Virus record (IMG/VR): IMGVR_UViG_2778261346_000016
Span: 1 to 9,852 of that record
Source: a virus
Taxonomy: Duplodnaviria; Heunggongvirae; Uroviricota; Caudoviricetes
Strand: one strand, 5' to 3'
DNA: 9,852 nucleotides
Shown: in pieces, positions 2,457 to 2,991 of the stretch
Numbering within the stretch: the stretch's first letter is position 1
Layout of the letters: each line of letters begins with the position of its first letter
Made by a program: the position numbers and the translations under genes
Notes under the pieces: model-generated
The model's input: the letters and a program-made list of their open reading frames with translations, nothing else
What the model was told of the DNA's origin: nothing
The model's database searches: none

Positions 2457-2645
2457 TCACTCTCCTTTAGTGCGCAAGTGGTTTTTCCAGCGGTTTTGCG
2501 CCGCGCTGGGCTTTTTGCAAAAACCACAATCCATCATCCCGTAATATTTCATCAACCCCATCCGTCGGTTGCTGAGTCTCACCCACTGCCAGACGCCAGG
2601 AGCGTTTCTACGAACTAACAGAATCTTTGCTTTACGGTTTTTCAT
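2457..2645 (-). CDS. small basic protein A (MKNRKAK family), 62 aa
   Basis: ORF in track. N-terminus MKNRKAK is identical to the adjacent paralog and it has a basic C-terminal region; its ATG overlaps the upstream paralog's stop (ATGA). Confidence 0.45.
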   Translation of the reverse strand: MKNRKAKILLVRRNAPGVWQWVRLSNRRMGLMKYYGMMDCGFCKKPSAAQNRWKNHLRTKGE

Positions 2646-2818
2646 CTTACAGCGTACCCTTTCTTCCGCCTGTTCTGTGACGCAGTAGGCTTACGCTTTG
2701 CGGCAAAAGCCACCTGACCAAATGGATGGAGTACCGCTATCTTATGGTTGCTAATAACCAGCTCCACCACACGCACAGGTCGCTGTAAAAAAAGTCGTTT
2801 TGCCTTACGGTTTTTCAT
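2642..2818 (-). CDS. small basic protein B (MKNRKAK family), 58 aa
   Basis: Hand-translated from the reverse complement: MKNRKAKRLFLQRPVRVVELVISNHKIAVLHPFGQVAFAAKRKPTASQNRRKKGYAVR. ATG 2818..2816 with AGGAGA SD about 9 nt upstream. Below the 60-aa track cut-off. Shares the start context cttacggtttttcat with paralog A. Confidence 0.45.
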   Translation of the reverse strand: MKNRKAKRLFLQRPVRVVELVISNHKIAVLHPFGQVAFAAKRKPTASQNRRKKGYAVR

Positions 2819-2991
2819 CGCTTTGCTCTCCTGCGTCTCTTTGCTGCTCGTCGTGCCGCTGCAATACCGGTATGGCGGCGCTTTGGTGCCGGGATGATGT
2901 TGTCAGCCATCAGGACATACGGCTTTGCAATTAGCGCAGAAGCCCAAAAACGAGTCGGGTACGGTAACAAGCCGATACATGCCACACGCAT
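2815..2991 (-). CDS. small protein with poly-Arg/Lys C-terminal tail, 58 aa
   Basis: Hand-translated: MRVACIGLLPYPTRFWASALIAKPYVLMADNIIPAPKRRHTGIAAARRAAKRRRRAKR. ATG 2991..2989 overlaps the TAA of the upstream 250-aa gene (TAATG); GGAGGT SD 7 nt upstream; its stop overlaps the next ATG (ATGA). Not in the track because it is under 60 aa. Confidence 0.45.
   Translation of the reverse strand: MRVACIGLLPYPTRFWASALIAKPYVLMADNIIPAPKRRHTGIAAARRAAKRRRRAKR

Follow-up and report, generated by a model that had tools for sequence, protein, structure and literature searches.

The stretch of DNA analysed here, referred to throughout as the window, comprises 9,852 nucleotides (positions 1 to 9,852 of the IMG/VR virus record IMGVR_UViG_2778261346_000016). 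Its minus strand carries, between positions 2457 and 2991, three consecutive open reading frames (ORFs), here called A, B and C, which according to both the ORF listing and the sequence lie back to back, flanked by an Ea22-like gene on the upstream side and by a gene of 171 amino acids (aa) on the downstream side. On comparative evidence, A, B and C are three genuine and separate coding genes. B and C belong to one family, PHROG 1380, named the K family in this work, and A represents a separate family, PHROG 13831, which is tied to the 3' ends of Ea22-like genes. The genes and the ribosome-binding signals at their ends are the following:

2815-2991, minus strand: ORF A, 58 aa, isoelectric point (pI) 12.0; phrog_13831; RefSeq WP_001261538.1; full protein MRVACIGLLPYPTRFWASALIAKPYVLMADNIIPAPKRRHTGIAAARRAAKRRRRAKR
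2642-2818, minus strand: ORF B, 58 aa, pI 12.0, K family with the internal-position tail; phrog_1380; RefSeq WP_000797289.1; full protein MKNRKAKRLFLQRPVRVVELVISNHKIAVLHPFGQVAFAAKRKPTASQNRRKKGYAVR
2457-2645, minus strand: ORF C, 62 aa, pI 11.3, K family with the terminal-position tail; phrog_1380; RefSeq WP_000797279.1; full protein MKNRKAKILLVRRNAPGVWQWVRLSNRRMGLMKYYGMMDCGFCKKPSAAQNRWKNHLRTKGE
2991-3743, minus strand: Ea22-like gene upstream of A, 250 aa, pI 4.6, TAATG-coupled to A
1940-2455, minus strand: 171-aa gene downstream of C; phrog_9263/phrog_631
2997-3004, minus strand: Shine-Dalgarno sequence AAGGAGGT for A, inside the last codons of the Ea22-like gene (IKGGE); the junction is kept in most related loci
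2828-2832, minus strand: Shine-Dalgarno sequence AGGAG for B, inside the A tail codons AAG AGA CGC AGG AGA GCA AAG CGA TGA
2462-2467, minus strand: Shine-Dalgarno sequence AAGGAG for the 171-aa gene, inside the final codons of C (ACT AAA GGA GAG, encoding TKGE)

The three genes are translationally coupled to one another and to their neighbours. The stop codon of the Ea22-like gene (TAA, 2993-2991) forms a TAATG overlap with the start of A (ATG, 2991-2989), ATGA overlaps join the stop of A (TGA, 2817-2815) to the start of B (ATG, 2818-2816) and the stop of B (TGA, 2644-2642) to the start of C (ATG, 2645-2643), and the stop of C (TGA, 2459-2457) is separated by a single base from the ATG (2455-2453) of the 171-aa ORF. 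Only a weak purine run is found upstream of C, the translation of which probably depends on coupling to B. An earlier interpretation made from the letters of the window (the sequence-only reading) had described such a chain of TAATG and ATGA overlaps linking minus-strand genes of 58, 58 and 62 aa, and both coordinates and overlaps were confirmed from the sequence. It had also described two of the genes as invisible to the ORF track; A and B are indeed unlisted, but simply because, at 58 aa, they fall below the 60-aa threshold of the listing.

As the same reading had stated, the three products are strongly basic, with pI values of 11.3-12.0 and a net charge of about +14 for each, which makes them more basic than the N-like protein of the window (pI 10.7). 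Protein A begins MRVACIG... and ends AAARRAAKRRRRAKR, its N-terminal half being hydrophobic (MRVACIGLLPYPTRFWASALIAKPYVLMADNIIP) and its tail rich in Arg and Lys (APKRRHTGIAAARRAAKRRRRAKR). The poly-Arg/Lys tail reported for this protein is real, yet the basic tails of the trio are in part nothing other than the purine-rich ribosome-binding site of the next gene.

Coding evidence and protein families

An ORF by itself proves nothing in this context, since the window holds 121 ORFs of at least 30 aa. Coding status was evaluated with a comparative set of 155 related loci, which yielded, at the DNA level, 84 different B/C-type alleles and 27 A alleles. The in-frame ratio of nonsynonymous to synonymous divergence (pN/pS, Nei-Gojobori) was, for the B/C type, 0.38 as median and 0.59 when pooled, and for A it ranged from 0.25 to 0.35, while the two shifted frames of the same alignments gave values of 1.0-1.1 and 0.7-1.5, respectively. 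Moreover, 206 of the 210 copies of the B/C type (98%) were full-length, and A was intact wherever it occurred, starting with ATG or, in about 30 loci, with GTG (TAGTG replacing TAATG).

Constraint is unevenly distributed along the K gene. The N-terminal nine residues are the most constrained (pN/pS 0.02-0.14), the C-terminal box (C-box) is intermediate (0.33-0.41), and the middle is the weakest (0.5-0.8), and close alleles, too, give values under 1 there; nothing in this variable middle points to diversifying selection, its pN/pS never exceeding 1. Synonymous divergence (pS) is similar along the whole gene, the N-box included, and, since pN/pS is low while pS is normal, selection on K acts on the amino acids and not on the nucleotides. 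In fact, synonymous codons are in use at invariant residues of the family (alignment columns N3, AAC/AAT; R4, CGT/CGC; K5, AAA/AAG; A6, GCA/GCT; S26, AGC/AGT; R53, CGC/AGG/AGA).

Direct evidence of translation is limited to A, whose 51-aa allele is the novel gene X015 of enterohaemorrhagic Escherichia coli (EHEC) EDL933, ribosome-footprinted with 108.8 RPKM (reads normalised per kilobase and per million mapped) for the transcript, a footprint RPKM of 34.8 and a coverage of 0.84, and without mass-spectrometry peptides (Neuhaus et al. 2016, PMC4765031). No translation record for B or C was found in the supplements of three published small-protein studies. Proteins identical to the three are present in RefSeq under the accessions listed above, all of them as "hypothetical proteins".

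The paralogy of B and C, proposed earlier from their common MKNRKAK start and related C-terminal box, is upheld by BLASTP (37% identity over 54 residues, E = 5e-10), by the shared box KP[ST]A[SA]QNR[RW]K and by the match of both to the phrog_1380 hidden Markov model (HMM), with E = 1e-40 over residues 1-62 of 62 for C, and E = 6.5e-23 for residues 1-58 of B against profile positions 1-60 of 62. Protein A matches the phrog_13831 HMM (E = 1.1e-41, residues 1-58 of 58), and profile comparison with hhalign found no relationship between A and K (probability 0.1%). A K-family profile search of 1.84 billion representative proteins returned just 48 relatives, and those with a named source belong to Escherichia or Salmonella and their phages; judging from these relatives, K is one compact family restricted to enterobacterial phages.

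Three motifs, with variable stretches between them, characterize the family, namely M[KN]NRKA[KR]xL, [RK][IVL]SN[RH][RK] and K[PR][ST]A[AS]QNR[WR]K. Their positions in the window are:

2619-2645, minus strand: N-terminal box of C (MKNRKAKIL), where constraint on K is strongest; the equivalent in B lies at 2792-2818
2562-2573, minus strand: central motif S25-N26-R-R of C, at the predicted turn of the strand 1-2 hairpin; SNHK of B lies at 2741-2752
2478-2513, minus strand: C-terminal box of C (KKPSAAQNRWKNH), where the predicted C-terminal helix begins and body and tail are exchanged between alleles

The central S and N are invariant in one alignment (alignment A1) and at least 90% conserved in another (alignment A2), with both AGC/AGT and both AAC/AAT codons used, and Q50, N51, R52 and K54 of the C-terminal box are invariant in alignment A1, the R being encoded by CGC, AGG and AGA. 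In alignment A1, invariance is limited to M, K, N, R, A, L, S and Q and extends to none of D, E, H and C.

No match above cut-off came from Pfam, NCBIfam or PADLOC when A, B, C and 35 members of the family were scanned. PADLOC, whose library consists of defence rather than anti-defence proteins, was likewise empty for the downstream 171-aa gene, and PDB sequence searches with the K profile and with A returned nothing credible. A C2H2 zinc finger (zf-C2H2_jaz) was considered for C, the only one of the three with a sub-threshold hit (13.3 bits against a cut-off of 22.6), and was rejected, Cys40 and Cys43 not being conserved in the family. The remark that the proteins belong to no named family is right as far as Pfam, NCBIfam and PADLOC are concerned, but the proteins were already filed as PHROG 1380, PHROG 13831, RefSeq WP_ entries and X015. 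In particular, B and C are identical to catalogued proteins of PHROG 1380, a family without a described function, fold or Pfam model.

Gene-end linkers, cassettes and genomic setting

Among the related loci, the arrays K, K-K, K-K-K, A-K and A-K-K were seen, and A, where present, almost always stands directly behind an Ea22-like gene ending in ...AGIRIKGGE. A K gene that precedes another K gene has the tail ...QNRRKKGYAVR before its stop codon, whereas the last K gene of an array, which precedes any non-K gene, ends in ...QNRWKNHLRTKGE (...WKNHLRTKGE, then stop). The existence of two tail types follows from the fact that the last codons serve as the ribosome-binding site of the following gene; indeed, over 15 different genes downstream have their ribosome-binding site in the terminal K tail codons ACTAAAGGAGAGTGAtATG, and the junction CTAAAGGAGAGTGATATG is conserved before them. 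Chimeric alleles are also found, which are identical to C of the window for about 136 nt and then to B of the window for the last 50 nt or so, with the crossover at the start of the C-box. The gene ends serve a triple role, being at once protein termini, translation-initiation signals of the neighbour and recombination joints, and the alleles and arrays show the genes to be exchangeable cassettes, of varying copy number and order, with recombination taking place within the conserved boxes at their ends. What is said here of genes, families and cassettes is the part of the explanation held with great confidence.

Near-identical linkers occur at two gene ends of the window, CGCATCAAAGGAGGTGAGTAATG (…IRIKGGE and stop, 2991-3008) and CGCACTAAAGGAGAGTGATATG (…LRTKGE and stop, 2457-2475), and lambda Ea22 likewise ends in …AGIRIKGE (locus L157, 2348-2370). 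Such short shared boundary sequences look like joints for the exchange of lambdoid cassettes.

Several database entries fuse the products of these genes, either as A::B (P0086, P0147, P0151), as an Ea22 N-terminus joined to K (P0001, P0049) or as K joined to the downstream gene (P0193, phrog_9263, phrog_12350). These fused "proteins" are explained as rare alternative-frame or indel products, arising at gene ends with multiple roles. Programmed frameshifting was considered and rejected: a -1 slip at C AAA AAG in C enters a frame that ends short of the next gene, a +1 shift would be needed to run into the downstream gene, and the fused entries are accounted for by indels. A variant of A, P0144 (relatives P0139 and P0140; 95 contigs), carries a frameshift which yields the acidic tail …HDEQQRNAGEQNDEKP, ending inside the start of the next gene. 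An alternative frame inside C (2467-2586, minus strand; MGETQQPTDGVDEILRDDGLWFLQKAQRGAKPLEKPLAH) forms part of the called proteins P0041 and P0128 and also turns up in variants with two frameshifts, one out of the K frame and one back into it (P0054, P0060); with a pN/pS of about 1, these forms are probably artefacts of annotation or mutation. Besides, one protein of 196 aa, P0192 (locus L155, 6001-6591; Logan SRR26188688, 72.5 kb), combines an N-terminal K domain with a 130-residue extension that belongs to no family and hence gave no functional clue; its contig also encodes a phage portal, a terminase and many small genes of unknown function.

Regarding the genomic setting, the gene order of the window corresponds to the int-xis ... 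ea22 ... exo/bet/gam ... N layout of phage 933W, and the minus strand carries every gene between the N-like ORF (8506-8778) and the xis-like ORF (1-192), both included. The 901 bases round the trio are 100% identical in the prophage of E. coli O145:H28 RM12581, in an Stx2c phage and in several plasmids of about 95 kb, and the neighbours are annotated in RefSeq as an integrase, a helix-turn-helix (HTH) regulator, ASCH, DUF551 and two ead/Ea22-like proteins. Between positions 1800 and 3900, the search for promoter-like sites gave none on the minus strand (its single match is on the plus strand), terminator-like sites were found on neither strand, and an Rfam scan of the window gave no RNA families. 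Judging from synteny, the trio would belong to the variable, distal section of the leftward early operon (pL-type), the "exo-xis" region, of a lambdoid E. coli prophage, in agreement with the phage accessory region that had been assumed beforehand.

The 90-aa ORF at 8506-8778 (minus strand) contains the arginine-rich stretch NARNRRRARRQAQREQA and has the C-terminal end …AAGYRKSKQLTAR, which resembles the end of P22 gp24. It is probably the N-type antiterminator of this prophage and, therefore, the trio would sit in an N-dependent operon. Upstream of A, two Ea22-like genes lie in tandem and overlap (2991-3743 and 3740-4402, minus strand; pI 4.6 each), with related N-termini (…YQALREAAERA… and …YQVLREAAEKA…) and differing bodies. 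In the RM12581 chromosome (locus L001, 6666-6901), an IS3-family element adjoins a truncated anti-RecBCD gene a few kb from the trio.

The genes are by no means confined to this prophage. Out of 5426 complete E. coli genomes, C was present in 588, A in 455 and B in 150 (about 3-11%), and carriers include the Shiga-toxin (Stx) phages 933W and VT2-Sakai and many P1-like phage-plasmids. Plasmids account for about 40% of all the places in these complete genomes, the share being 43% for C and A and 67% for B. The whole Ea22-like/A/B/C module is found on many P1-like phage-plasmids of about 90-100 kb (NZ_JBUBIS010000002.1, 3300-4050; RCS47, P1 MH422554 and D6), a presence from which it follows that the module travels between lambdoid prophages and P1-like elements.

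Annotation of the genes is uneven. B is unannotated in the RM12581 chromosome and annotated (WP_000797289.1) by the Prokaryotic Genome Annotation Pipeline (PGAP) on plasmid p1054a, the sequence being identical (L001, 3346-3516, and L002, 1843-2019). Neither A (3951-4103) nor K (3766-3951) is annotated in the two 933W records, where the gene L0068 / ST933Wp08 (3546-3833) extends in another frame over the 3' end of K and hides it, 3834-4102 being left unannotated. In the window, too, the frame of the downstream gene is open for 24 further codons upstream into C (GTG start at 2527; 1940-2527, minus strand). The downstream 171-aa ORF itself is intact in the window, with a match to phrog_9263 (positions 62-230) and an end-to-end match to phrog_631; PGAP, however, annotates no more than the initial 179 bases, as a "frameshifted" pseudogene, and gives nothing for 1943-2277, a miscall apparently due to a 58-aa reference protein (phrog_16308). 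No Pfam or PDB match was found for this ORF. It has a D...EAK motif and a weak match to a "DNA repair protein" PHROG (E = 0.0023), and its product might be a nuclease of the PD-(D/E)xK type.

Function of the K proteins and rival explanations

Structure modelling with AlphaFold2 was applied to the K family (C) only. The model obtained from 23 sequences was weak, with a predicted local distance difference test score (pLDDT) of 64.6, while with 35 sequences the pLDDT rose to 81, with a predicted template modelling score (pTM) of 0.53. The predicted elements of C are a helix (4-12), three strands (19-25, 28-33 and 38-43) and a second helix (48-60), and in the pLDDT-81 model the three K motifs map to the start of helix 1, the turn between strands 1 and 2, and the start of helix 2. 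No significant neighbour of this model was found by Foldseek in the PDB (best E 0.3), and the sole match of a BFVD structure search was a K-family member from phage Av-05.

The explanation favoured here, to which we give about an even chance, is that K is a non-enzymatic binding module, most probably contacting DNA or structured RNA; the nucleic-acid step, taken separately, is held with somewhat less conviction than the explanation overall. The K proteins would make this contact through three patches, namely an N-terminal arm with its helix, the turn of the hairpin and the beginning of the helix at the C-terminus, and would modulate, in an accessory capacity, the expression of phage or host genes soon after infection or induction, with A as a similarly basic adaptor, the Arg-rich helix of which would be its active part. 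The net charge of about +14, the invariant residues devoid of D, E, H and C, and the positions of the patches in the pLDDT-81 model speak for a binding module of this kind. On the opposite side, no nucleic-acid-binding family or fold was recovered with Pfam, NCBIfam, PADLOC or PDB sequence searches, a high positive charge is also suited to the binding of an acidic protein such as the Ea22-like neighbours (pI 4.6), and the basicity of the tails is partly forced by purine-rich ribosome-binding sites. Moreover, the basic tail of A is not universally kept, since variants such as P0144, which lacks it on 95 contigs, are common.

Among the rival explanations, the one with most weight, which is nevertheless considered improbable, is that the proteins act on other proteins, A working in stoichiometric amounts as partner to the acidic Ea22-like protein, be it as adaptor, chaperone or antagonist, and K binding some other acidic protein of phage or host. 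The contrast between the pI of 4.6 of the Ea22-like protein and that of 12 of A would suit such a partnership, no nucleic-acid-binding fold was found, and A lies nearly always right behind the ...AGIRIKGGE end, with a TAATG or TAGTG overlap, tight translational coupling being typical of the subunits of one complex. Nevertheless, lambda Ea22 has the same C-terminal tail in a phage without A and K, K genes are found without A and behind unrelated genes, and the conservation of the junction is more simply understood as that of a ribosome-binding site and recombination linker. Rather less credit is given to a role in host takeover or anti-defence, as put forward in the sequence-only reading, in which small early proteins would block a host immunity system or enzyme, the K middle tracking variable host targets. 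The highly mosaic accessory region of the early operon, the tandem paralogues with divergent cores (37% identity) and the confinement of the family to enterobacterial temperate phages and phage-plasmids would suit this role. Nevertheless, no sign of diversifying selection is seen in the K middle, where pN/pS is 0.5-0.8 and below 1 among close alleles too, known DNA-mimic inhibitors are acidic while A, B and C are extremely basic, and PADLOC was empty, although its library is one of defence, not anti-defence, proteins.

The two remaining alternatives deny the proteins a role, or an identity, of their own. That they are translated by-products, with ends kept only as ribosome-binding sites and recombination linkers, is regarded as very unlikely: the tails do carry the Shine-Dalgarno sequence of the next gene, crossovers are located in the boxes, the K middle is weakly constrained (pN/pS 0.5-0.8) and an A variant with a frameshifted tail is common, but the N-box, with pN/pS of 0.02-0.14 and free synonymous sites, is under amino-acid constraint, the central SN motif, which lies far from the junctions, is invariant in alignment A1 (at least 90% conserved in alignment A2) with synonymous variation, 98% of the copies are intact and the K model is confidently folded. 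The possibility that one longer gene has been broken by frameshifts is considered already refuted and is given next to no credence. Fused forms do exist in databases; these are, however, rare and derive from alternative-frame reading or single indels, each ORF occurs independently in many arrangements, purifying selection acts on each in its own frame only, and A and K are unrelated by profile comparison. Own-frame purifying selection and independent occurrence uphold the sequence-only reading on this point as well, the trio consisting of three separate genes and not of fragments of a single one.

To sum up, the original observation is correct and its interpretation partly upheld, the nucleic-acid-binding or anti-defence role suggested there being conjectural. 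The genes, though genuine, are fairly ordinary, and they join the familiar class of small early lambdoid-phage proteins without a characterised role. Modest interest attaches to the orphan fold of K with its very tightly constrained N-terminal heptapeptide and to the gene-end linkers with triple duty. If K does bind nucleic acid, the catalogue of small binding modules would gain a new entry, and medically relevant prophages a new early regulator; if it does not, an annotation correction and a clean example of the shuffling of lambdoid accessory cassettes would still be gained.

Comparison with known folds and phage proteins

The C model shares its alpha-beta-beta-beta-alpha order of elements, and a similar size (about 60-70 aa), with the double-stranded RNA-binding domain (dsRBD). 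This domain contacts RNA via helix 1, the loop between strands 1 and 2, and the start of the last helix, and it is at these places that the conserved patches of K fall. However, neither a match to the Pfam dsrm profile nor three-dimensional similarity to solved domains was found. The N-terminal DNA-binding domain of AP2 and phage integrases (three strands and a helix) is also similar to K in size and in the order of its elements, again with no significant structural similarity, and the homeodomain is alike only in the QNRRxK string, the K model being mostly beta between two helices and Pfam being empty. Since no significant structural neighbour was recovered, the homeodomain, AP2/integrase, dsRBD and His-Me finger leads were dropped as memberships. 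A bolder proposal, and a rather unlikely one, is that K may be a new minimal dsRBD-like fold, which would recognise a structured RNA or DNA site through the MKNRKAK arm, the SNRR turn and the AAQNRWK cap. Between one and three shuffled copies of it would allow temperate phages of enterobacteria and P1-like phage-plasmids, Stx phages possibly among them, to alter the programme of gene expression soon after induction.

With the arginine-rich-motif proteins (lambda N, P22 gp24 and HK022 Nun), A and K have in common short, very basic helical segments in early lambdoid proteins. The A tail AAARRAAKRRRRAKR is Arg-rich, as in these proteins, and the K box QNRWK resembles QAQWK of the lambda N motif, although its W is replaced by R in B-type tails. 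On the other hand, no homology was detected between the two groups, and K is predicted to be a folded alpha/beta domain and not a disordered peptide.

The closest known protein to A of the window is X015, which is identical at 49 of 51 residues and differs by a 7-residue deletion from the 58-aa allele of the window; it was reported as a translated orphan, with no function assigned (PMC4765031). As for the neighbourhood, the small "exo-xis" proteins of lambda comprise Orf60a, Orf61, Orf63, Orf55 and Ea8.5, some of which affect the lysis-lysogeny decision (PMC8614690). Text searches of the exo-xis modelling paper found no mention of A or K, and the work on this region, which influences the induction of Stx prophages, has probably omitted them because they are unannotated in the 933W reference. 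Lambda contains no copy or remnant of A or K, and no sequence similarity was found between A/K and the lambda exo-xis proteins (hmmsearch E of at least 0.38, seven-sequence set). Nevertheless, both groups are alike in their operon, in their location in the ea22-xis neighbourhood, in their size (55-93 aa) and in their accessory, non-essential character.

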